19,449 bases of DNA from a virus. Its lineage: Duplodnaviria > Heunggongvirae > Uroviricota > Caudoviricetes. The stretch spans positions 1 to 19,449 of IMG/VR virus record IMGVR_UViG_3300009551_000045, one strand, 5' to 3'. The notes beneath the pieces are model-generated. The model did not search any database, was not told the origin of the DNA, and saw only the letters and a list, made by a program, of their open reading frames with translations. This document shows positions 4,972 to 17,552 of this stretch, in pieces (the stretch's first letter is position 1; each line of letters begins with the position of its first letter). The translations under genes were made by a program, and so were the position numbers.

Positions 4972-5226
4972 TTAAGACTTTATAACGGAATTATTATTTA
5001 CATTATCTATCGGAGCAGTTTTAGATGCTCCATAATAAAAACCTGCTACAGCAGAGAATGCTCCACCGAAAACGAATCCAATAGCAGCATACATTATATC
5101 TTTGTTCTCAGGAGGTACTGGCTTTATTGTTAGCAAATACAAAAGAATAAAAACTCCTAATGTAATTATCACAGCCAAAATATTACGTATTTCTACATTT
5201 ACTATTTTTTTAAAAAATTCAGTCAT
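4972..5226 (-). CDS. Small two-TM membrane protein, holin-like
   Basis: 84 aa with two hydrophobic segments (ILAVIITLGVFILLYLLTI; IMYAAIGFVFGGAFSAVAGFYYG) followed by a FYYGASK motif like that of small phage holin-type proteins. No endolysin is visible in the window. Confidence 0.6.
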   Translation of the reverse strand: MTEFFKKIVNVEIRNILAVIITLGVFILLYLLTIKPVPPENKDIMYAAIGFVFGGAFSAVAGFYYGASKTAPIDNVNNNSVIKS

Positions 5227-5252: not shown

Positions 5253-5262
5253 TATAAATATC
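5253..5262 (-). promoter_or_regulatory. GATATTTATA motif upstream of the holin-like gene
   Basis: Exact copy overlapping the TGA of the 886-aa gene, 26 nt upstream of ATG 5226. Confidence 0.55.
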
Positions 5263-7921
5263 AATTACTAATGATATTAATTCTATAACTTCTTGGTATA
5301 ATCAAATAATTTTTAATAATATCAATTGTTTCAGCAAATCCTATATTAGGGTGTACTGCATCTCTCGTATTTCCATAATAATCTAAAGAAGTATAGGTAG
5401 GTCCTGGAATACCTTGTTTATATAACATACCGGTAGTTGTAGGTATGAAAAATGTACTATCTTGTAGACCTATTAATGGAATAGAAGGCACAAATCTTGT
5501 AGCAGCTGTATCCCATACTATTGTACTTCCAGGATTATTTATGAATTTATTACATCCTTGATTTAAGGTTCCAAAATTACAAGCAGTCCAAACTGTATCA
5601 GTAGGTCCTACTAAATAACAATTTTTTACAAAAAGTGAATCATGATCATAGAAATCAAATCCTGGTACATATGGATCATTTCCAATCCCAAGACCTTGAT
5701 GACGTAATGTAATAAACCAAACTTCTGGAACTGTTCGCGCTCTAATATATGGTGATAATGAAGATGTATCTCCTGGATGTGATTGACATTCTAAAAATGG
5801 ATATTTTCTCGAACTATCACTTATACAATTATAAACTCTACTTCTTCCATTATATCCTGTACTCCATAATGAAAATAAATTAAACATAGACGGAATATCA
5901 GCTGCACCCCAATTTCGAACGCAGTTACCAAAATTATTTGTGCCAAACCAACAGTTGTAAACTTCGAAATAAGACATTCTTAAAAATAACATAGCAGCAT
6001 GACCTCTTGGATTAGGAACATTCATACCAAAATTCCAAAGACTATCATGATGTATATATATTCCATATACATTATATGCAAAAATGTATGTTGGTGGATT
6101 TGATAAAGCTGAATAATCTCCAAATTTATCATGATCTATTTCAACATTTATCCATGTCTGATTTTTAGCCAAAGCTCCGATGTAAATAGCTGTATTACCT
6201 GAATTTGCTCCAACTAAAGAATCAAAAGTACAATAACTCCATCTCCATTTATAAAAACAATTTATTGTATCTCCAGTAAAATTTGGAAGAGTTGCGAATG
6301 ATCTAGGACTTGATGGGAAAAATCCATTCATTCCTCTAAATGTGCAATGATCAATCCAAATATGTTGTGAATATCCCAAATTGGCATAAGAAGTAAAAGC
6401 AACATCTATATTATCATTCATAGTCCAATTATATATATGAACCCAAAATGATGAATCTATGCTATTTGCTCCCAATGGTGATGATGTGTTAGGAGTTATA
6501 AATGATCCATTTTGCCAAACTATAGTTATATATTTACCTTCGGATCTAGTACCAATACGATCTATTGTAAAACTTCTATATCCTCCTGATCTAACTGGAA
6601 TAAATACTGTATCTCCTCCCATTAAAGATACTCCAAATGTTGTATTATTAATTAATATATTAGAATTTGTTGAGGGCCAAGTAAAATTCATCGGTGATCT
6701 TGTAGAAGAATTAACAGTAACTTGAACCGTAGCAGTTCCAGTTAATGAAGTATTATCAGTTACAGTTATTTTAAATACATAAGTTCCCTGAATAAGTCCA
6801 GCAACCCCAGTAGTTAATAAATTCGGAGATGTTATACTAGCATTATTTGGTCCACTAACTTGACTCCAAACTATATTTGATGCTGTATTTCCGCATTGAT
6901 ATGTAACACTTGCAGAAATAGATGATGAACTTGTCGGTAAAGTTATTGTTTGATTAGATCCTGGTGTAACAATTGGATTACATGTAGGTCCAACTAGTGT
7001 AGTATCGCCCTGTGCAAGCATCCAAGTAAATATATTTTGACCGGTACGATAGGTTCCCTGCGTATTTGGTGCTGGTCCTGTACCAATATTAGGTCCTATA
7101 ACTGGAATAGTGCTCCAATTTGTTACAGATGGATCATACATAGAATTCCAACAGCAATGTGATCCCCCTCCAAGAGTTTCCCAAGCAAAATAAGCGGATC
7201 CTGGAACTGTATCATTCATAGGTTGTGACCAAAGATAACCATTTCGGAAATTATCCGAGCCATTACCTTCTAAATAAAAATACTTACCACCATATTTAGC
7301 TGCCCATACTTTATAAGCACCTTGTCGTCTATCCCATGAATTAATAGCTGGATTTGGAGTACCTTCGAGAGCTACAAGAGAAGTCATGCGACTCATACCA
7401 TCTTCTGTTCCAGCAGATTTTTCAAAACATACTAAAGCTCCCCAAGTAAATGCTCCTTCCGATAATCCGGCAAAGTGTCTACCTCTCGCTTTAATATGAT
7501 AGAATTTTATTAATGTATCTACTATATTAAGAACATCTGCTGCATATGTATTTACAGAATTAGTATAACACACAGTAATTAATAAAGGATAGTGTCTACC
7601 ATTACCCAATTGTATACCTCCATCCCATCCATTTTTTAACCAAAAATGAGGACCATATACAGTCAATTTACTTGTATCAGTAGTACCTAATTCACCCTGA
7701 CCTGGCATTGTAATAATAGCCGGACGAGATGCTGTATCTGGATGGCCTGCAGTAAAATAATTACGAGGACGAGTAATTCTTATATTCCATATATTAGTAG
7801 GCCCAAATGGCGCATTGAAAATCGAAATAGTGGTATCATAGGTAATCATGTCATGAGTCTCCGACTGACTGAATCCTATGATAGGTAAAAACAGTAAAAG
7901 AAAAAATAATTTCTTAATCAT
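5261..7921 (-). CDS. Exported multidomain protein: signal peptide + alpha/beta-hydrolase (serine esterase-like) + PKD/Ig-like domain + right-handed beta-helix-like domain
   Basis: Signal peptide MIKKLFFLLLFLPIIGFS|Q; oxyanion-like PAIITMPGQGE; nucleophile elbow GLSEG (7468-7454); candidate catalytic His in GGSHCCW; PKD signature GSNQTITLP...WSQVSGPN...GLIQGTYVFKITVTDN...VQVTVN; C-half with IDHCTF/YNCWF/YNCIS beta-helix-like repeats; 16 Cys. Confidence 0.8.
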   Translation of the reverse strand: MIKKLFFLLLFLPIIGFSQSETHDMITYDTTISIFNAPFGPTNIWNIRITRPRNYFTAGHPDTASRPAIITMPGQGELGTTDTSKLTVYGPHFWLKNGWDGGIQLGNGRHYPLLITVCYTNSVNTYAADVLNIVDTLIKFYHIKARGRHFAGLSEGAFTWGALVCFEKSAGTEDGMSRMTSLVALEGTPNPAINSWDRRQGAYKVWAAKYGGKYFYLEGNGSDNFRNGYLWSQPMNDTVPGSAYFAWETLGGGSHCCWNSMYDPSVTNWSTIPVIGPNIGTGPAPNTQGTYRTGQNIFTWMLAQGDTTLVGPTCNPIVTPGSNQTITLPTSSSSISASVTYQCGNTASNIVWSQVSGPNNASITSPNLLTTGVAGLIQGTYVFKITVTDNTSLTGTATVQVTVNSSTRSPMNFTWPSTNSNILINNTTFGVSLMGGDTVFIPVRSGGYRSFTIDRIGTRSEGKYITIVWQNGSFITPNTSSPLGANSIDSSFWVHIYNWTMNDNIDVAFTSYANLGYSQHIWIDHCTFRGMNGFFPSSPRSFATLPNFTGDTINCFYKWRWSYCTFDSLVGANSGNTAIYIGALAKNQTWINVEIDHDKFGDYSALSNPPTYIFAYNVYGIYIHHDSLWNFGMNVPNPRGHAAMLFLRMSYFEVYNCWFGTNNFGNCVRNWGAADIPSMFNLFSLWSTGYNGRSRVYNCISDSSRKYPFLECQSHPGDTSSLSPYIRARTVPEVWFITLRHQGLGIGNDPYVPGFDFYDHDSLFVKNCYLVGPTDTVWTACNFGTLNQGCNKFINNPGSTIVWDTAATRFVPSIPLIGLQDSTFFIPTTTGMLYKQGIPGPTYTSLDYYGNTRDAVHPNIGFAETIDIIKNYLIIPRSYRINIISN

Positions 7922-8352
7922 TTGAAATATTCTATTCTAAATCCTTTAAAAGTATTATTCCATATAATAATCTCATTTGGATGCCATTCAATATCGCCTC
8001 TACTTTTAATATGGAAATAAACGACTCCTTTTTCATATTGTGGATTATGCTTACTGGTTTCCCAATTATCCCAAGATATATAATGAAATTTACTAGTTCT
8101 TGATTTACCTAACCAATTCCAAGTTCTATAAATCATACGAACAGATGTATCCAATTTGAAAGATACACTAATAGTATCTCTTTTGGAAGAAATACTATTC
8201 AATGCCGGTCCTTTATTATCTTTTTTAGAAGATGTATCTAAACGATATAAAGATTGAAATCTATAGTTACTTTCTAATGTCCAGGAATTATTAGGAACTT
8301 GGGCTATACTTTTAAAAGATAAAAAAATTATTAAAATTAATATATATTTCAT
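7918..8352 (-). CDS. Small exported protein of unknown function (basic, Trp/Tyr-rich)
   Basis: 144 aa; signal peptide MKYILILIIFLSFKSIA|Q; its stop overlaps the next start (ATGA at 7921-7918). Confidence 0.8.
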   Translation of the reverse strand: MKYILILIIFLSFKSIAQVPNNSWTLESNYRFQSLYRLDTSSKKDNKGPALNSISSKRDTISVSFKLDTSVRMIYRTWNWLGKSRTSKFHYISWDNWETSKHNPQYEKGVVYFHIKSRGDIEWHPNEIIIWNNTFKGFRIEYFK

Positions 8353-8357
8353 AACTA

Positions 8358-9680
8358 TTAATGTTTTGTAATTTTGATATAAGACAGAAGAGCAACTTGT
8401 TCTCCGCTTGTTAATTTACCAATATAGAATGTAAAGTTACCACCTGCATCTGGTGTTATAGCAGTCCATGTAGCTTTACTACTAGTATTTGCATTTCCAT
8501 TAAAATTCTTAGCGGTTTGCAAAACTGATCCTCTTACATTATAATTGCCTACAGCTGCAAGTGGGAAATGAGTAGTACCTGATAATTCTATATCATATGT
8601 AGTACCATCTGTTTTTAATCCACCAACTACAAATTGAGCATTAGTAGTTTGATATAAATTGCTTGTAAATACAGTTTCTTTCATGACTCCACTATTTGCC
8701 GGATCTGGTATAGTAGCATTAGTTACACCATTATTTACACCTATGCAACCTGCCGGGCTTCCAAACGTTCCCCAATTTGAATTAGAAGTAGATACTGTCG
8801 TAAATGTAATAGTAGTATTTGGTATTGTTCCAGAAATAATATGTTTACTAGGATCTCCTTGAACAATTGTCCAACCTGCTACGTTATTAGCAGCAGTTGT
8901 ATCGAATTGAAATTTAACTGAATCTGGAGTACTTGCCGCTCCTGATGTGGTACCATTTACTGTAACATTTTTAGTTGTTGCACCTCCTCCACTATTTCCA
9001 ATATTTCCTGAATACGTTCCTGGGATAGTATTTGTGTCAGATAGAGCTACATATATCGTTTGAGATATAGACCCTGAGACAGGAACCACTGTTTGTTGGA
9101 ATGCAAATGAACTATTATCTTTAGATACTTTATATCCAGCAGGAGATTGAACAGTTATATTACCCGTCAAGGCAGTACCTGTAAGCGAATATGATTGAGA
9201 ACCTCCCAATGAACCAGTTATGGAAGTAAATCCTGTTAAACTTGTTGGATTAACGATTAAAGTAGGAACAGCTGTTACTGTAGCAGAATAAGCAACATCA
9301 GCTGTAGCGGAGCCGCTAGATCCATGTATATTACCAGAATAAGATCCGGCAGAAGTAGCAGCCGCTACTCTAACATAAACGGTTCCTGAAGGATTGGATC
9401 CAAGAAATGTAATTGTATCAGTCCATGTTGAGTTATCTTTACTAATTTCCATTCCAGAACCAGTTTTCCATCCAACAGCCGCACTTAAATTACCACTAAC
9501 AAAATTAAAGGATTGAGATGCAGATGCTGTTCCTGTACTTGTTAAAAAAGCAGATAATGTATTTAATGAGTGTATATATGGCCCTGGGTTTATCTCTGTT
9601 ATACTAGAGGTAGGTTGAATTATTTGTGCCGAAGCAGAAATAGAAATTATACTAAATAAATATATTAATATTGTTTTCAT
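8358..9680 (-). CDS. Exported protein with two tandem Ig-like domains and a C-terminal beta-sandwich (possible carbohydrate-binding) domain
   Basis: Signal peptide MKTILIYLFSIISISASA|Q. Two similar ~100-aa units (SQSF/Y...ISKDN/VSKDN...VYVR/IYVA...GSYSGNI/GTYSGNI) like those in Bacteroidota surface proteins; the C-domain is beta-rich. Confidence 0.75.
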   Translation of the reverse strand: MKTILIYLFSIISISASAQIIQPTSSITEINPGPYIHSLNTLSAFLTSTGTASASQSFNFVSGNLSAAVGWKTGSGMEISKDNSTWTDTITFLGSNPSGTVYVRVAAATSAGSYSGNIHGSSGSATADVAYSATVTAVPTLIVNPTSLTGFTSITGSLGGSQSYSLTGTALTGNITVQSPAGYKVSKDNSSFAFQQTVVPVSGSISQTIYVALSDTNTIPGTYSGNIGNSGGGATTKNVTVNGTTSGAASTPDSVKFQFDTTAANNVAGWTIVQGDPSKHIISGTIPNTTITFTTVSTSNSNWGTFGSPAGCIGVNNGVTNATIPDPANSGVMKETVFTSNLYQTTNAQFVVGGLKTDGTTYDIELSGTTHFPLAAVGNYNVRGSVLQTAKNFNGNANTSSKATWTAITPDAGGNFTFYIGKLTSGEQVALLSYIKITKH

Positions 9681-9689
9681 ATTATCGAT

Positions 9690-12600
9690 TTAAAGAGAAT
9701 AATCAATGTTAATAACAACAATTGACGAAGTGTTTAAGGTTCCCGAATTAAAATCAAATGTTGCCTGAGTTGCAGAACTAGTAATACTAGCTGTACCAGC
9801 CATATATCCGCCTGCTCCATTTATATTAACATTTTCAACCCCAAAACCAATACCACTTTGCGTTGTAACACTGGTAGCAATTGGAAGACTAAACGTTATT
9901 CTACTGGACGTATTCGTTGCAGAAGTTTGTATTATTACACTTATACGAGCGTGTACAATGTTACCAACTTGTATATAATTTGCACTACTTAACGAAATAC
10001 TAGCTATATTAGTTGTTCCTGTCAAAGTTGGTGTGAAACTACCAGAGGTTCCTCCTCCAGGAGAAACCTGCCATGAAGCATTACCATTAGCATCAGAAGT
10101 AAGAACTTTAAGATTTCCCTGTGTTCCATCAACTATGGATATACCACCACCAAAATAAGATTTACCGGTAGCCACTTTTAATGCCCAAGGACTTGGTATA
10201 GTTACATTAGTTCCAGCAGTAGGAGCCCCAGCAATATACAAAGTAGATGCATTTGTGAATGTTACACCAGTATTAACTGCTGACATTAAAATATTACTTA
10301 AACCAACTAATGCCACATCTGCCCTAGTTCCACCACTACCAGTAAATCCAGCATCACTCACAGCTGGAGATATATTAATTGCAGAACCAAGAGTGCCATT
10401 AAATTGAACTGTTCCATTAGAAATTATTGATGTTGAAGCTAAATTAGCCAACCCGTTATTTAAATTAAGACCTCCAAGTGTTAATGTACTTGTTGTAGCC
10501 AAATCTTGAGGTATTGTTAAAGTTAAATTACCCGTTTGATTAGCTCCAGACGTTCCATTAACAAGAACTTGATTAGCTGTACCTTTAACTGCATAAGTGA
10601 TACCACTCAAACCAGTACCAGCACCATTTGTGGGAAGTAATGTTCCAGACGTGGGTAATGTTACGTTAGTATTACCAGTAAGAGTTAATGTAGCGTTAAA
10701 AGCTCCCGAAGTTGCAAAATTACCACCCAACGTTATTGTCTTGGTAGCATTATTTACACCAGTACCACCGTGATCAGGTGGTACTATACCTGAAAGTCTA
10801 GAAACATCAACAGATGATCCGGACATCATAACGCTATCTATACCACAGGATGGACATATACCAGTACTAGTTATAACCCATTCATAAGTATTTGTGTGTG
10901 AAGGAGCATTATTGTGAATAACTTCACCAGCAAAATATAATCCGGTTGTAGGAGCTGATGCTGCGTAAATATCTTGATTAGATACAGCAACAACTACCCA
11001 CGTATTTAATAGATCACTTCTTTTTAGTATAGCCGACTGTTTATCACGTAAGATAACCATTCTACTAACACCAAATTTATTAACATCAATATTACCACCA
11101 ACACCATTTAACATAACGACACCACTATTACCTGCCTGATCATTAGCACGAATAGATATAAATTCACCTGGCCCGGCATTACTATTGATTGTGCTAATAT
11201 AAGCTGAAGAAGTGGTAGTAGTGTTAACCACAATATCTTTGAAATAGTTTGCTGTAATAGCATTACTGGATACACTTAACGTTTGACCAGCAGATGAACT
11301 GGTAACAGATCCATTTGTTTGAAAACTATTTCCCCAAATATCAAATCCACCAGCAGTACCTGAAGGAGAAGTGTACCATTTATTAACTACACTATATACA
11401 AAATTACCTGCAAATATTCCATGACTCAAATCATCTCCTATAATATAAGCATTCGTACCAACACCTACATTTTTCCAAGTATTCCAAAAAAAGTTTATAG
11501 TACTACGATTAGTCAGATGTACGCCAATGGAATCATTTTCAAACCAACCAGATATTACTGACACACCTTGTGCATTTGATGTCCGCATTATATCATGATA
11601 TGCCTGTACTGTTGGTCGATCAAATACAACAGCACCTTGTATCTGATCATTACTCGTTCCTAAAGAATTTAATTCAACTGCACAAGTATTTAAGTTAGTA
11701 GACCCTGCACCATAAGCTTCTAAATTACGAAAAGTTGTTTGACCTAACTGTCCTGACACATATACCGCTCTTGCAGTTGTATCAGCAGTATTGTATACCC
11801 TAACATCCTCAAAAGTAAGGAATTGGTTAGCTAGATCTCCAGAACCATCAGACGCGATTAAATTAATAGCACGTCCTGAACAGTTCTGAATTTGAACATT
11901 GTTCATTCTAAAATGCCATACGCCGCCATTGAAAGGTGAACTTACAGATCCAACAGCTGTAAAATTAAAACAACCTTGACCTACATATCCAGAATTCATT
12001 ATAACTTGTAAGTCACTAATACCCCACTGATCAACAGGACCCGGAACTATACCAAAAATATACTTCCTAGAACTGTTATTTGGTGCAATCCTAACTCGAA
12101 CATTATCTCCTTGTATAATAACACCTGTTTTGATAGTGATACTATCTACCATGATGTTTTTATTACCACTGATACCTTCATCAATTATCACCTTTCTGGA
12201 TAATGCTCCGGTAGTGGCAGCATAATCAATTACAGACTGTAATTGAGCGGTCATATCGGTAGAACCATCACCTAGAACCTTGAACCATATACTATGAATA
12301 GGTCCTGTAAATTCTCTTTTAAATCGATGGCCAGCCGCATCAACTATACATGTACCTAAATTATCTGTAGTAGTATTATCAGAAGCATCATATACGTATT
12401 TTCCACTAATATATTGGTCTTTTATAAAATAAGCTTTATTTGCAGATGGAGTAGCTACCAAAGCTCTAAGTTCGGAAACATAAATACCTACAACTGTTCT
12501 TCCATATAATCCAACAGTATCCAAGTTAACCTTAAAGTTAATACTATCTCTATTAGTTTCAGTAGTAACATTTAGTAATCCAGCAGCACTTGCACTTATA

Positions 12601-13325
12601 CCTTTGAATAACATAGAGTCCTTGGTAAAATTAAATAGTACCATCTGATTACCATGACCATACCATCCAACATAAATAGTTGAATCAATACGTTTTTTAT
12701 CATTTGCAGTCAACGATCCAGCATTATTATGATCGGCTCCAGTTAATACAATGGAATTACTATTAGATATCTTAATGGTATCGGCTGATGATGATTGTGA
12801 TAAAGATAATGATTGAGTTCCTCCTATTGTAGAAAAAGGAGTTACCCACACTTTCCCGCTATTATCTCTTAACATAAAACTATCAGTAGATAATGGAGAT
12901 GCTTTGTTAGGTAAACCGGTGATACTAAAATCAAATCCAGTCGTACCTAATGTAGTATTTCGTAATAAATTACCACCAAAATAAAGACTATCACCATGAG
13001 ATCCTGTTAATCCATTTACAGGATATACATTGAATGTACCCGATAATAATGTCCATCTATGACCTCCGGTTATAACAGTGTCTCTTTTGTATATATCACC
13101 AGTTGATCTGATTTGAATAAAAGCTCCTAAACTATCTAAACCTCCATTTAAACCATTCGTAGTATCGTTTACTACAGGTATATAAATGTTTAATTGTGCT
13201 CTCAATCTAGCATCGGAAACAGTTACACCAGGTCCACTTCTTAATGCAATAGAAGGAATTTTATTTTGTGCTTTTGCAAAAAAAATTGAAAAAAGCGGAA
13301 TAAGAAATATTAATAATCGTTTCAT
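9690..13325 (-). CDS. Tailspike/depolymerase-like mosaic protein with a pectate-lyase-3-type beta-helix, carrying an N-terminal Sec signal peptide
   Basis: Signal peptide MKRLLIFLIPLFSIFFAKA|Q; spike-head motif VSELRAL...GTCIVDAAGHRFKR; beta-helix cap WFKVLGDGSTDMTAQLQSVID (~12300-12230); post-helix SAPTTGLYFAGEVIHNNAP...EWV; fibre motifs PDHGGTG and KVLTSDANGNASW; C-terminal GSFTPTL...YIQVGNIV fibre-tip-like domain. Confidence 0.75.
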   Translation of the reverse strand: MKRLLIFLIPLFSIFFAKAQNKIPSIALRSGPGVTVSDARLRAQLNIYIPVVNDTTNGLNGGLDSLGAFIQIRSTGDIYKRDTVITGGHRWTLLSGTFNVYPVNGLTGSHGDSLYFGGNLLRNTTLGTTGFDFSITGLPNKASPLSTDSFMLRDNSGKVWVTPFSTIGGTQSLSLSQSSSADTIKISNSNSIVLTGADHNNAGSLTANDKKRIDSTIYVGWYGHGNQMVLFNFTKDSMLFKGISASAAGLLNVTTETNRDSINFKVNLDTVGLYGRTVVGIYVSELRALVATPSANKAYFIKDQYISGKYVYDASDNTTTDNLGTCIVDAAGHRFKREFTGPIHSIWFKVLGDGSTDMTAQLQSVIDYAATTGALSRKVIIDEGISGNKNIMVDSITIKTGVIIQGDNVRVRIAPNNSSRKYIFGIVPGPVDQWGISDLQVIMNSGYVGQGCFNFTAVGSVSSPFNGGVWHFRMNNVQIQNCSGRAINLIASDGSGDLANQFLTFEDVRVYNTADTTARAVYVSGQLGQTTFRNLEAYGAGSTNLNTCAVELNSLGTSNDQIQGAVVFDRPTVQAYHDIMRTSNAQGVSVISGWFENDSIGVHLTNRSTINFFWNTWKNVGVGTNAYIIGDDLSHGIFAGNFVYSVVNKWYTSPSGTAGGFDIWGNSFQTNGSVTSSSAGQTLSVSSNAITANYFKDIVVNTTTTSSAYISTINSNAGPGEFISIRANDQAGNSGVVMLNGVGGNIDVNKFGVSRMVILRDKQSAILKRSDLLNTWVVVAVSNQDIYAASAPTTGLYFAGEVIHNNAPSHTNTYEWVITSTGICPSCGIDSVMMSGSSVDVSRLSGIVPPDHGGTGVNNATKTITLGGNFATSGAFNATLTLTGNTNVTLPTSGTLLPTNGAGTGLSGITYAVKGTANQVLVNGTSGANQTGNLTLTIPQDLATTSTLTLGGLNLNNGLANLASTSIISNGTVQFNGTLGSAINISPAVSDAGFTGSGGTRADVALVGLSNILMSAVNTGVTFTNASTLYIAGAPTAGTNVTIPSPWALKVATGKSYFGGGISIVDGTQGNLKVLTSDANGNASWQVSPGGGTSGSFTPTLTGTTNIASISLSSANYIQVGNIVHARISVIIQTSATNTSSRITFSLPIATSVTTQSGIGFGVENVNINGAGGYMAGTASITSSATQATFDFNSGTLNTSSIVVINIDYSL

Positions 13326-16300
13326 ATATAAAGAATTTGAAAATATGAATCCTGACTGAAGGTTGTATTATTTATATCAATTCTACCTTGAGAAGAGGTA
13401 AAACTGAACCAGGAAGCTAATGATCTTGAAATAGGAGCCATTATAAATCCTTCTTGACTAAACTGTAAAATACTAGAACTAACTAATAAAGAACTACTGA
13501 AAATTGTTGATCCAGAGGAAGGAGTAAATGATTGACCATCACCTATAACAAAATTTATAACTTTAGTAAAATTTCCAGCACTACCAGTATTAACCCATTG
13601 GAATCCTGATTGCGTCTTTATCAATGTTTGATTCAACGATCCTGTAGAACCAATTGAATCATATATCGATTTGCTAATATAAATATCTCCAAATACTTGT
13701 AAAACGGCATTATTGGATCCTGTATTTCTTCCTATTAATATAGAACTACCTGATTGATATATACTACTTGTTGTTAATATATTTGATCCACTAAATACTG
13801 CTAAATAATTAGATAAACCCCGTAATGAAGATGATGGTAAATAATTACTTTCACTTGCAAATACATTATTTATTATGGTATTAAAAGATGAAGAATCAAC
13901 TATATAAGATGCTGTAAATGAATTGAAAGTTCCTGTAATAACATATGATCCGGTAAGAGTTGATAAAGATCCAGAAATGGTCTTGATTCTTGTGTCAAAT
14001 GAACCGGAATCTATGATATAAGAAGATGTAAATGTATTAAATGATTGTGTTAATAAATTAAATGAAGAAGTTAATGTATATTTACTTTCTGAAGCAAATA
14101 TATTAGCAATCTGAATATTCGTGGATGAAGTATATGCCTGGAATATACCATTTGTAACAAATCCATTTGAGCCAGTAGATGATCCTGATAGATCAGACCA
14201 TTTTATTCCTCCTATTATCGAAGAAATTACTTGCCCATTTGATCCAGTATTACCAAATGAATCATATAAATATTGTCCTACATGAAGAGAACTGGTATTT
14301 AGGTAAAGATCTTTATTAAATTCAATTGATTCGGAATAATAAGTAGCTACATCATTTCTACTCATTGAACTAAATCCATTTCCTATTATAAATAATGAAT
14401 TAGCATTTATCTTATTAAACCTACCTATCACTAATTGATATGAACCTGTTGAAATAGTACCAAGACCTTCAGTATGTGATCCAAACCCATAGGATATACT
14501 TCCGGAACCTTCAGCATGAGAATAATCACCATAAGCAGTATTTCCTGTTCCTTCAGAATGTGCTCCTACCCCATTAATAGCATTATTAGAACCCTCAGCA
14601 TGACCTATATATGAATTTACAGTATTGTTAAAACCGTGGGCAAAGGATCCTGATCCATATAAAATATTATTAAATCCAAAAGCTACCGTATTAGTAACAG
14701 ACGGAGTAAAGTTAGTTGGTTGTATAATTGCACCAGATATAGATATAATAGAATTACCTAGTTGATTTATTAGACTCGATGTTAAACTATGAGGAGTATT
14801 AAACAATGCTATTTGTCCTGAACTACCGCTTATGAAATTATTAAATGAAGATGTAAGTAAATAATTACTCTCAGAAGCATATACATTATTTATTTTAACA
14901 TCTGTAGAGGATGAATAAGTAAGAAAACTAGAGCTAAATATATTAAATGATGCGGTTGATAAATAATTAGATTCAGAAGCAAATATGTTATTTATTCTAT
15001 TACTGAATGATGAAGAATCTATATTATAAACAGATTGAGACACAACCTGCATATTAACAATATTACCATTATTGTCAACACCAAGAACGGCACTAGAAGT
15101 ATTGGCATAAAAAGATAATACTATGCTGCCCGTTTTATTAACAACAAAAGCGTTAGATAATGATCCTGTTGAACTTCCATTACCTATTATAAAAATAGGA
15201 TCACCTCCAATCCATGAAGATTGATTAGACGAAGCAATTGGATCATTAAATCTACCCAATACAACGGCATATGCTGCAGATGCTGATAAATTTATACCAC
15301 CTAAAGTAACAGATCCGACTCCTGGAGTGATATTACTTTGACCTCCTACGACTACTGAAGAATTACCAATCGCGCTATTATTAGCACCATCAATAACAAC
15401 CGCCATATTGTTGGCAAAGTTATTAACACCACCCAATACTATAGCATTTGATCCTGTCGTGCTATTATTTGAATTACCAAAAACGATATTATTATTAGTA
15501 AAAAATGCCCCAACTTGAACATTATTTCTTTTAAATATAAGATCCTGAGCATTTGTAGAGCCTAGAAACGATCCAGAAGAAATTGAGTTTCCTGAAAGAT
15601 TCCATCCGCCAGATCCAGTAGAAATCCAAAGTATTCCACCTGGAGCAAAACCTAACATTTGTCCTGCAGATCCAGTTGAATTTGAAGAATCATATATAGA
15701 TCCAGATATATATATAGAACCAAATAATTGTAATAAACTATTATTTATTGATCCTGTTCTTCCTAATATTATAAAACTACCAGATTGATATATGGAACTC
15801 TGTGTTATCGCAGAAGATCCGGTGAATACAGCTAAGTAATTATTATTGCCTATTATAGATGCAGTTTGAAGATAATTGCTTTCGGAAGCAAATACATTTA
15901 TAATTCTAGTTAAAAATGAACTAGAGTCATTTAGGTAAGACGAACTAAAATTTGAAAATGAAGAAGTGAGCAGATAATTCGACTCAGAAGCGTATACATT
16001 GCTTAGACTGTTATTTATCGAAGCTGAGATGTTGAGATAACTAGCAGTAAAAGGATTATAAGATGATGTTGGAACATAATTACTTTCGCTTGCAAATACA
16101 TTTGCGATGTTTATTAATATTGAAGCAGAATCTATAAAATACGATGATGTAAATGTGTTGAAAGAACCAGTTAAAACATATCCAGCAATAAATGACGACG
16201 TAAGAGCAGCTATATCGGTAATATCCAAAGCTCTAAAAATAGGGATTCCAGATGTTCCTACTGGAGAAGCATATACAAGATTTGCACTTTGAGTATTTAA

Positions 16301-17392
16301 AGATGCAGATAAAACTCCTGCACCAACTATTGGTGAATTATAAACACTGAATAATGAAGAAGGTAATGATAATCCAACGGAAGTTACAGAACCACTAGCA
16401 AATATTCCACTTCCACTTCCTAAAGAAATCCATCCAACACCATTATGAAATTCAATATTAGTAGTTTCGGTATTTCCTCTAATCATAGCAAAAGAACCTG
16501 TTGGTCTTTGAGCAGTAGTACCACGAGGTAATAACAAATATGAAGTATCGTTTACAGATACAGGTCCAGCTACCTGCAATAGGGCATTATTAAGACCATT
16601 CACTTGATTGATCAAAAGTGAAGATCCAGAATAATAAAGTAAACCAAAAGTAAATCCTTTTGATCCACTATATATAGGTATATAATTATTACTTCCTAAT
16701 ATAGAACCTGTAGGTAAGTAATTACTTTCAGAAGAATAAACATTATTTATTCTAGTATCTATTGAAGATGAATCATTTTTTATTGAACTGCTTAAAATAT
16801 TAAAAGATGATGTTGGAACATAATTACTTTCTGAAGAATAAACGTTATTAATTTTATTTAAAAAGGAAGAAGAATCTACAAAATAAGAAGCAGTAAAAGG
16901 ATTATAAGATGATGTTGGAACATAATTACTTTCTGATGCATTAATATTTACCAACTTCTGATTAATAGAAGATGAATCTATTACGTAGGATGCACTAAAT
17001 ACACCGAATGTTGTAGTAGTTATATATGATCCAGATGGTATAGATCCAGAAATGGCTTTGATTCTGATATCGAATGAACCAGAATCTACAAAATAAGAAG
17101 CAGTAAAAGGATTATAAGATGATGTTGTAGTATATCCACTTTGAGATGAATATATGTTCTTATCATTATTATAAAATGAACTAGAATCGTTATTATAACT
17201 TGATGAAAAATTATTAAAAGATCCTGTAGTTACATAAGATCCTGTTAATAAAGATGATATTCCATTTTGGAAATAATCTTTCATTGCACGATAACTTGTC
17301 TCTGTTAATGCACCTGTATTTGGATCTCCTATAAATCCTATAGAAGAATCATTTATTGAGCCAGATGGAAGATTTATTATTTTTTTTGACAT
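13322..17392 (-). CDS. Long tail fibre / adhesin-like protein with Ser-rich 34-aa repeats and two YadA-head-like repeat blocks
   Basis: 1356 aa, no signal peptide, no Cys found. Ten (A/S)SES(N/K)Y repeat cores; YadA/Hep_Hag-like blocks NAIVLGG...AVVLGRFN and GHAEG/AHSEG/SHAEG/SHTEG; phage fibre module SVTSVGLSLP...SGIPIFRAL. Confidence 0.8.
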   Translation of the reverse strand: MSKKIINLPSGSINDSSIGFIGDPNTGALTETSYRAMKDYFQNGISSLLTGSYVTTGSFNNFSSSYNNDSSSFYNNDKNIYSSQSGYTTTSSYNPFTASYFVDSGSFDIRIKAISGSIPSGSYITTTTFGVFSASYVIDSSSINQKLVNINASESNYVPTSSYNPFTASYFVDSSSFLNKINNVYSSESNYVPTSSFNILSSSIKNDSSSIDTRINNVYSSESNYLPTGSILGSNNYIPIYSGSKGFTFGLLYYSGSSLLINQVNGLNNALLQVAGPVSVNDTSYLLLPRGTTAQRPTGSFAMIRGNTETTNIEFHNGVGWISLGSGSGIFASGSVTSVGLSLPSSLFSVYNSPIVGAGVLSASLNTQSANLVYASPVGTSGIPIFRALDITDIAALTSSFIAGYVLTGSFNTFTSSYFIDSASILINIANVFASESNYVPTSSYNPFTASYLNISASINNSLSNVYASESNYLLTSSFSNFSSSYLNDSSSFLTRIINVFASESNYLQTASIIGNNNYLAVFTGSSAITQSSIYQSGSFIILGRTGSINNSLLQLFGSIYISGSIYDSSNSTGSAGQMLGFAPGGILWISTGSGGWNLSGNSISSGSFLGSTNAQDLIFKRNNVQVGAFFTNNNIVFGNSNNSTTGSNAIVLGGVNNFANNMAVVIDGANNSAIGNSSVVVGGQSNITPGVGSVTLGGINLSASAAYAVVLGRFNDPIASSNQSSWIGGDPIFIIGNGSSTGSLSNAFVVNKTGSIVLSFYANTSSAVLGVDNNGNIVNMQVVSQSVYNIDSSSFSNRINNIFASESNYLSTASFNIFSSSFLTYSSSTDVKINNVYASESNYLLTSSFNNFISGSSGQIALFNTPHSLTSSLINQLGNSIISISGAIIQPTNFTPSVTNTVAFGFNNILYGSGSFAHGFNNTVNSYIGHAEGSNNAINGVGAHSEGTGNTAYGDYSHAEGSGSISYGFGSHTEGLGTISTGSYQLVIGRFNKINANSLFIIGNGFSSMSRNDVATYYSESIEFNKDLYLNTSSLHVGQYLYDSFGNTGSNGQVISSIIGGIKWSDLSGSSTGSNGFVTNGIFQAYTSSTNIQIANIFASESKYTLTSSFNLLTQSFNTFTSSYIIDSGSFDTRIKTISGSLSTLTGSYVITGTFNSFTASYIVDSSSFNTIINNVFASESNYLPSSSLRGLSNYLAVFSGSNILTTSSIYQSGSSILIGRNTGSNNAVLQVFGDIYISKSIYDSIGSTGSLNQTLIKTQSGFQWVNTGSAGNFTKVINFVIGDGQSFTPSSGSTIFSSSLLVSSSILQFSQEGFIMAPISRSLASWFSFTSSQGRIDINNTTFSQDSYFQILYI
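13830..17130 (-). repeat. Intragenic 102-bp (34-codon) repeat family, including exact DNA duplications
   Basis: taattacttt recurs at 16719, 16821 and 16923 (period 102). Exact 47-bp duplicate at 16871-16917 = 17081-17127; exact 45-bp duplicate at 16043-16087 = 16889-16933. Confidence 0.9.
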
Positions 17393-17393
17393 C

Positions 17394-17552
17394 TTATGTA
17401 ATTATAGTTTTAAAAGTATCAGCTTCTAGCCTATTTCCTGCCTGATTTGGGTGTAGACTATCAAGAAATAATGAATTTGGATCTCCTATTAAACCTAAAG
17501 ATGAATCTAAAATAGATCCTGAGTCTAATTGATTTATTCTTTTATCTGCCAT
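17394..17552 (-). pseudogene. 52-aa chimeric mini-ORF (fibre N-terminal module fused to an SGNH-hydrolase C-terminus); probable internal-deletion remnant
   Basis: Hand translation: MADKRINQLDSGSILDSSLGLIGDPNSLFLDSLHPNQAGNRLEADTFKTIIT*. The first 27 aa match the start of the 1356-aa protein at 18 positions; the remainder carries DxxH(PN)xxG of SGNH block V. An A-rich initiation region lies upstream and TAA-G-ATG couples it to the next gene. Confidence 0.75.

Follow-up and report, generated by a model that had tools for sequence, protein, structure and literature searches.

The stretch of DNA analysed here, hereafter the window, comprises the opening 19,449 nucleotides of one virus record of 83,449 bp (IMGVR_UViG_3300009551_000045; 32% GC). 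Every long open reading frame (ORF) of the window is on the minus strand, and a cassette of four adjacent genes, encoding proteins of 1211, 440, 144, and 886 amino acids (aa), is located inside the tail-fibre operon. We found that the two large proteins of this cassette are strongly enriched in the O-glycosylation sequon of the Bacteroidota, that the enrichment is specific to this motif and restricted to leader-bearing proteins, and that many of the sites are conserved in relatives. The reading that we favour, to which we assign a probability of about 0.68, is that the cassette proteins are exported and glycosylated by the host, that the two large enzymes are under selection for many glycan sites, and that the proteins are released at lysis. 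The sequon, D-[ST]-[AILVMT], is a published motif that is enriched across the phylum; the general O-glycosylation system that recognizes it modifies non-cytoplasmic proteins only, an engineered motif is sufficient for modification, the system works across species, and sites are nearly fully occupied (PMC12871550).

The cassette genes are found on the minus strand, as are all features of the window given below, at 9690..13325 (1211-aa tailspike/fibre-like protein), 8358..9680 (440-aa protein), 7918..8352 (144-aa protein), and 5261..7921 (886-aa esterase-PKD-beta-helix protein). A sequence-only reading of the window had counted 13 sequons in each of the two large proteins, three in the 440-aa protein, one in the 144-aa protein, and two each in the tail sheath and the 1356-aa fibre, and all of these counts were reproduced. 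It had also proposed a comparison with shuffled sequences and with the non-exported proteins of the phage, and the excess was evident in both. Using an expectation derived from 5000 within-protein shuffles, the 886-aa protein carries 13 sequons versus 2.64 expected (z 6.6; the observed number was reached in 0 of 5000 shuffles; Poisson tail 4e-6), and the 1211-aa protein carries 13 versus 5.1 (z 3.7, p 0.002-0.003). The first nine sequons of the latter (DTT54, DSL64, DTV82, DSL112, DTI182, DST214, DSM236, DSI260, and DTV269) are packed into an N-terminal region (residues 20-300, 12426..13268), such that residues 21-300 hold nine against an expectation of 1.38 (Poisson 1.5e-5). The 440- and 144-aa proteins, when pooled, contain four versus 1.8 expected, which is not significant.

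Elsewhere in the genome, sequon numbers are close to chance. Leaving the four cassette genes aside, the 97 ORFs of the record hold 73 sequons versus 69.9 expected, and the 84 ORFs that lack an N-terminal signal or anchor hold 62 versus 67.3. In contrast, the 17 ORFs with such a signal or anchor hold 41 versus 12.9 (z 8.4), and the 13 of them that lie beyond the cassette still have 11 versus 3.4 (p 0.0007), all located past the hydrophobic segment. Six control patterns, among them E[ST]x, N[ST]x, D-x-[ST], the motif read backwards, and D[ST] with a residue outside the permitted set at position 3, occur at or below chance in the same proteins. The third position of the motif is likewise selective, since 26 of the 31 D[ST] dipeptides in the two large proteins are followed by A, I, L, V, M, or T, whereas non-exported ORFs show this for 62 of 193 (Fisher 1e-7). 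Two anchored proteins from the early region of the genome, outside the window, have four sequons versus 0.41 expected (153 aa, 74704-75165) and three versus 1.11 (298 aa, 73395-74291), every one of them past the anchor; judged by sequence, these are probably further periplasm-facing, glycosylated phage proteins. A caveat raised earlier, that a broader motif would also match serine-rich repeats of a fibre, was borne out: with Ser permitted at position 3, the leaderless 1356-aa fibre (13322-17392; 20% Ser) scores 12 versus 5.7. The score reflects nine DSS triplets, which mimic the broad version of the sequon and are probably repeat-borne and irrelevant to periplasmic glycosylation.

All four cassette proteins begin with features of a cleavable leader, namely, an N-terminal Lys or Arg, a hydrophobic core 10-14 residues long, small amino acids at -3 and -1, and Gln at +1. 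Gln at +1 after the signal-peptidase I site is a Bacteroidota-specific signature known as the Q-rule (PMC5837995). By our leader rule, the signal peptide of the 1211-aa protein spans residues 1-19 (13269..13325), with a predicted cleavage between A-K-A and Q, and that of the 886-aa protein spans residues 1-18 (7868..7921). Gln19 of the 886-aa protein is invariant across 17 homologues, Gln-at-+1 leaders are present in all four members of the 1211-aa family, and the same holds for 21 of 21 leader-bearing cassette proteins in four phages, i.e., this one and three phage-like contigs described below. We found no match to a C-terminal sorting domain for type IX secretion (T9SS; PF18962 or TIGR04183 type) in any cassette protein at E <= 0.01 in Pfam and NCBIfam; precomputed Pfam annotations place PF18962 on bacterial relatives of the 886-aa protein and on none of its full-length phage-type homologues.

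The 886-aa protein was modelled from an alignment of 17 homologues with a predicted local distance difference test (pLDDT) score of 74, which resolved an esterase, a PKD domain, a beta-helix, and a low-confidence tail of 112 residues. The sequons are distributed unevenly amongst these parts. The alpha/beta-hydrolase domain (residues 20-310, 6992..7864), which resembles carbohydrate and feruloyl esterases, has five versus 0.81 expected; the K319L-like PKD domain (residues ~317-404, 6710..6973) has none; the right-handed beta-helix module (residues 411-774, 5600..6691) has five versus 1.0; and the tail (residues 775-886, 5264..5599) has three, at D775, D804, and D821, whose Asp residues are invariant in the 17 full-length homologues. 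There was no Pfam esterase match for the protein. However, Foldseek matched the domain to feruloyl and carboxyl esterases with target TM-scores of 0.5-0.63; the nucleophile elbow GLSxG and the GxHCCW motif are each kept in all but one of 28 aligned phage and bacterial homologues, and an Asp block, GSDNF, is kept in the phage copies and in approximately half of the bacterial ones. The beta-helix half is GH28/GH49-like by structure. On the strength of the model, we read the 886-aa protein as a predicted serine esterase joined to a PKD domain and a beta-helix, which would act on polysaccharide.

Across 17 aligned full-length homologues, which average 40% identity, the Asp is invariant at eight of the 13 sequons, and these residues make up eight of the 11 invariant Asp columns of the protein. 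Ser and Thr interchange at position 2, and position 3 drifts inside the permitted set. Conservation of Asp is 0.86 at sequons versus 0.45 elsewhere (p 2.6e-4), and that of Ser/Thr is 0.87 versus 0.49 (p 1.6e-6). Three further phage-like contigs, with GC contents of 51, 40, and 33%, preserve the gene order of the cassette, and in each of them it is located beside baseplate, fibre, or lysis genes. When the four phages are pooled, the 886-aa family holds 57 sequons versus 10.5 expected (z 15) and the 1211-aa family 58 versus 23.8 (z 7.7), whilst 42 non-exported neighbours hold 23 versus 25.9. The 144-aa family also reaches significance when pooled in this manner (6 versus 1.4, p 0.0015), and the small extra exported proteins found in some cassettes hold nine versus 1.7. 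These extra proteins, a 146-147-aa PKD protein and a 106-122-aa protein, both leader-bearing, lengthen the cassettes at L001:12721-13513 and L002:12729-13564 and are absent from the phage studied here. In a third related locus, on a 148-kb contig, a 739-aa pectate-lyase-like protein of the tailspike type (L003:288-2507; PF12708, precomputed Phage_tail_beta) with a Q-rule leader is encoded just upstream of the cassette. Searches of phage databases with the cassette DNA and with the 886- and 440-aa proteins gave no match.

Of the alternatives to selection for glycosylation, one is that the sequons simply arrived with genes captured from Bacteroidota hosts, in which this enzyme family would be glycosylated, and have persisted in the phage through conservation of the sequence around them, without any such selection. 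Residues 1 to ~410-438 of the 886-aa protein (leader, esterase, and PKD domain) are 42-57% identical to Chitinophagaceae and Sphingobacteriales proteins that end in a T9SS sorting domain, and the esterase sequons D29, D62, and D237 are present in 15-18 of 19 of these bacterial homologues, with D135 and D306 present in 8-9 of 19. Furthermore, the bacterial relatives P0027, P0028, P0031, P0042, and P0045 are themselves enriched ~7 times. Because these sites are common to the T9SS-secreted homologues of Chitinophagaceae, the esterase sequons are, by sequence comparison, a family trait retained by the phage rather than a phage invention. Inheritance from host genes does not, however, explain the other sites. 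The sequon residues are more conserved than other Asp and Ser/Thr of the same proteins, and the beta-helix module, which we found only in metagenomic proteins that lack a T9SS domain (several of them on phage-sized contigs), has, together with the tail, eight sequon columns of its own; among 19 stand-alone homologues, seven of these columns persist in 16-18 and the eighth, D626, in 12. These 19 stand-alone proteins (~500 aa, all with hydrophobic leaders) hold 177 sequons versus 34.4 expected. The 1211-aa family maintains a 2.4-fold excess at 16-27% identity although its positions differ, and the excess extends to small, unrelated proteins of this genome that are exported or anchored. We therefore regard inheritance as unlikely to account for the phage-only module, the density in the 1211-aa protein, or the small exported proteins. 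With regard to the stand-alone module, many of the P0136-P0151 leaders run into Thr-Asn-Tyr-Thr-Trp instead of Gln, and this form is thus often off the Q-rule, whilst the fused form in the 886-aa phage protein obeys it.

A further question is whether the density merely reflects what is usual for proteins exported by Bacteroidota. The bacterial homologues all belong to Chitinophagaceae or Sphingobacteriales, a prophage carries a cassette-related module next to a SusC-type gene, and Flavobacterium is the host of the nearest isolates, the closest being Flavobacterium phage vB_FspM_immuto; together with the Q-rule leaders, these relationships point indirectly to the Bacteroidota as the probable host phylum. 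In crude ORF calls across 405 kb around the bacterial homologues from Chitinophagaceae, leader-bearing ORFs hold 83 sequons versus 78 (~1.06 times), and none of the 26 large ones exceeds a ratio of 3.3. The 886-aa family, by comparison, has 13-18 sites per ~900 aa, or ~5 times chance. A generic export effect was rejected, since the exported proteins of the Flavobacterium phage show no excess (14 versus 11.1). Both baselines agree that the sequon density is a property of these families and goes beyond a generic secretome effect. In vB_FspM_immuto_2-6A (NC_055915.1, 9935-16409; L035/L036), seven consecutive genes encode proteins of 151-474 aa, six with Gln-ending Sec leaders and one without, and the run shows no sequon excess, though the host is a known Flavobacterium.

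An equally improbable alternative is that Asp-Ser/Thr-hydrophobic is a structural element that recurs in these particular folds, for instance as a turn or a cap before a buried residue in the beta-helix and esterase, and is unrelated to glycosylation. Position-specific conservation with an invariant Asp would be expected of structural residues too, some of the sites are in predicted strands or helices, and the excess is family-specific, being absent from the generic exported proteins of Chitinophagaceae and of the Flavobacterium phage. The explanation would nevertheless have to apply to at least five unrelated exported families (the esterase, the beta-helix, the N-terminal part of the 1211-aa protein, the 144-aa family, and the small PKD or anchored proteins), whilst leaving no excess in the cytoplasmic fibre and beta-helix-like proteins of the genome or in leaderless fibres with shared repeats (ratios 0-1.0). 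Three of the conserved sites are in a tail that is predicted to be disordered. Ser and Thr swap freely, and across three alignments Glu never takes the place of Asp at sequon columns, a pattern in which the replacements are too few for significance and which does not discriminate between the explanations.

The 1211-aa protein appears, from sequence matches, to be built from tailspike and tail-fibre modules, and is predicted to be a polysaccharide-acting enzyme. Its central region (residues 301-820, 10866..12425) is beta-helix-like, is 35% identical to P0122, a metagenomic SGNH-containing protein, has weaker tblastn matches to tail proteins of isolate phages, and is not enriched (three sequons versus 2.1). 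It is followed by a ~60-residue tail-fibre repeat (residues 838-900, 10626..10814) that is 69-71% identical to phage fibre repeats. For residues 21-300, protein-atlas searches returned weak matches to tail proteins (score 0.86), which we treat as a lead only. A structure model from a six-sequence alignment was unusable (mean pLDDT 40), and there was no PDB sequence match. As the family alignment is too divergent (16-33% identity) for column scoring, only counts were used for this protein. The 440-aa protein had no Pfam, PHROG, or phage-database match.

The genomic position of the cassette raises the possibility that the 1211-aa protein, and perhaps its neighbours, are virion parts matured in the periplasm, i.e., exported, glycosylated, and joined to virions at or after lysis. 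Along the direction of transcription, the operon encodes a 670-aa fibre, a GDSL/SGNH esterase, and the 1356-aa Ser-rich fibre, followed by the 1211/440/144/886-aa cassette, two small genes, and then the tail sheath, tube, and baseplate hub. An ATGA in which the 1356-aa fibre gene upstream ends and the 1211-aa gene begins couples the cassette translationally to a fibre gene; a second ATGA joins the start of the 886-aa gene to the stop of the 144-aa gene. In the L002 contig, the cassette occupies the place immediately after the baseplate genes at which one would look for a fibre gene, and the tailspike-like and fibre-repeat modules of the 1211-aa protein point in the same direction. However, two ordinary leaderless fibres (1356 and 670 aa) are already present and share an N-terminal attachment motif, which is absent from the 1211-aa protein, where a predicted cleavable leader is found instead. 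In addition, the N-terminal half of the 886-aa protein is homologous to free or cell-surface bacterial enzymes, and we know of no extracytoplasmic assembly step for tailed phages. We consider maturation as virion parts highly unlikely; were it true, this would be a tailed phage with an extracytoplasmic assembly step and with host-type glycans on its receptor-binding apparatus. Least probable of all, at a level we regard as negligible, is an artefact of chance or composition, which could be entertained for the 1211-aa protein alone (borderline, p ~0.03, once corrected for the ~13 proteins examined), but is refuted by the shuffles of the 886-aa protein and of the N-terminal part of the 1211-aa protein, by the family z scores, and by the null result for every control motif.

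Several other features of the locus were recorded. The ORF that is given as 393 aa in the window runs past the window end and encodes the full 670-aa fibre at 18257-20269 (-), including the fibre N-terminal attachment motif. The motif is repeated in a 52-aa ORF at 17394-17552 (-). Directly downstream of the cassette, at 4972-5226 (-), is an 84-aa protein with two hydrophobic segments. In related loci, the cassette has as a neighbour a gene for a holin-like protein (L003:2511-2705) or for a muramidase (L032:14337-14969), and since such genes adjoin it, the cassette may be co-expressed with lysis genes.

The reading that we favour, namely host glycosylation of exported enzymes, would proceed as follows. 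The cassette would be expressed late, together with the fibre genes, and its four products exported by the host Sec pathway and trimmed by signal peptidase I to an N-terminal Gln. The periplasmic general O-glycosylation system of the Bacteroidota host would then modify Ser/Thr within D-[ST]-[AILVMT]. Selection would keep many glycan sites, as fixed positions in the 886-aa family and as a steady density with shifting positions in the 1211-aa family. Because they lack a T9SS sorting domain, the proteins would probably wait in the periplasm until lysis, which would free heavily glycosylated, free enzymes that act on capsule, exopolysaccharide, or other surface or matrix polysaccharide. The sequence-only reading had suggested that the phage proteins are shaped to be glycosylated by the host, for stability or for camouflage with host glycan. 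Given the leaders, the sequon excess, and the conservation of the sites, glycosylation itself is likely, with the qualification that the sites of the esterase domain are an inherited family trait. We found no support for camouflage, which has no obvious audience in a bacterial setting. We think it most plausible that the glycans serve stability outside the cell, although the function of Bacteroidota O-glycans is still unclear and stability is offered only as a possibility in the review of the field (PMC12871550).

A number of observations weigh against this interpretation. Export was scored from sequence features by a home-made leader rule rather than by a trained predictor, and both baselines depend upon the same rule and upon crude ORF calls, made over 405 kb for the bacterial one. 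By these criteria, the 440-aa family counts as exported and yet is not enriched (7 versus 5.2 when pooled, not significant). Conversely, Microcystis phage Mel-JY01, used as a control, was not a clean negative, as its 12 leader-like ORFs hold seven sequons versus 3.3 (p 0.045). Several of the conserved sites are inside predicted strands or helices and perhaps beyond the reach of a glycosyltransferase that acts on folded protein; given the high conservation of the sites, Asp-Ser/Thr-hydrophobic may have a structural role in these folds, and those of the esterase domain may simply have been inherited. Mel-JY01 also encodes a 124-aa ORF (PP395634.1, 15385-15759; L044) with a Bacteroidota-style leader ending in ...FSQSEP, closely similar to the junction between leader and mature protein of the 886-aa family; such a leader is unexpected in a phage whose recorded host is a cyanobacterium.

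The closest known parallels are the substrates of general O-glycosylation in B. fragilis, Tannerella, Porphyromonas, Prevotella, and Flavobacterium johnsoniae, which have the same motif and the same restriction to proteins with a signal peptide or anchor (PMC12871550). The bacterial homologues of the phage proteins come from the same phylum. The genes described here differ from those of the known substrates in being phage-encoded and in being located in a tail-fibre operon, and, as judged by sequence, their products add new, phage-encoded members with an unusual density of sites to the putative clients of a glycosylation system that is already known. The review makes no mention of phages (PMC12871550), and our literature searches returned no report of phage-encoded substrates of Bacteroidota O-glycosylation. 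Prophage proteins of Porphyromonas gingivalis are likewise phage-encoded and have leaders that expose Gln (Matrishin et al. 2023, PMC10367356); these were read as an adaptation to the Bacteroidota secretion pathway, with no mention of glycosylation (PMC10367356). In contrast to those proteins, the ones studied here are large enzymes with a pronounced, conserved excess of sequons, and their genes belong to the late structural operon of a myovirus-like phage from soil.

Amongst bacterial proteins, the T9SS-secreted esterase-PKD-(CBM/RCC1) proteins of Puia, Chitinophaga, Flavisolibacter, and Flavitalea have the catalytic motifs and most of the esterase sequon positions in common with the 886-aa phage protein, which lacks the sorting domain and carries the beta-helix module instead. 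The likeness to phage tailspike depolymerases and tail fibres is found in the GH28/GH49-like beta-helix of the 886-aa protein and in the tailspike-like centre and fibre repeat of the 1211-aa protein; the latter differs from them in having a cleavable Sec leader in place of a virion-anchoring N-terminus, and in N-terminal 280 residues packed with sequons. The MAT fibres of Bdellovibrio are likewise reported to be exported, surface-displayed proteins with phage-fibre-like modules (Caulton et al. 2024, PMC10769870); they are encoded by a predatory bacterium and have no link to the glycosylation motif of the Bacteroidota.

If the cassette proteins are indeed glycosylated, then phages that infect a phylum prominent in soil and gut use passage through the host periplasm to produce glyco-enzymes. 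Viruses of eukaryotes routinely use the protein-glycosylation machinery of their hosts, and to our knowledge such use is essentially undescribed for phages. In practical terms, depolymerase-like enzymes of this kind may misbehave when expressed in E. coli. The combination of a Q-rule leader and a sequon excess would provide a marker, readable from sequence only, with which to assign uncultured phages to Bacteroidota hosts. Finally, the 886-aa family, with its 13-18 sites, many of them invariant, and a predicted esterase activity that can be assayed, would be a convenient model for studying the role of Bacteroidota O-glycans.

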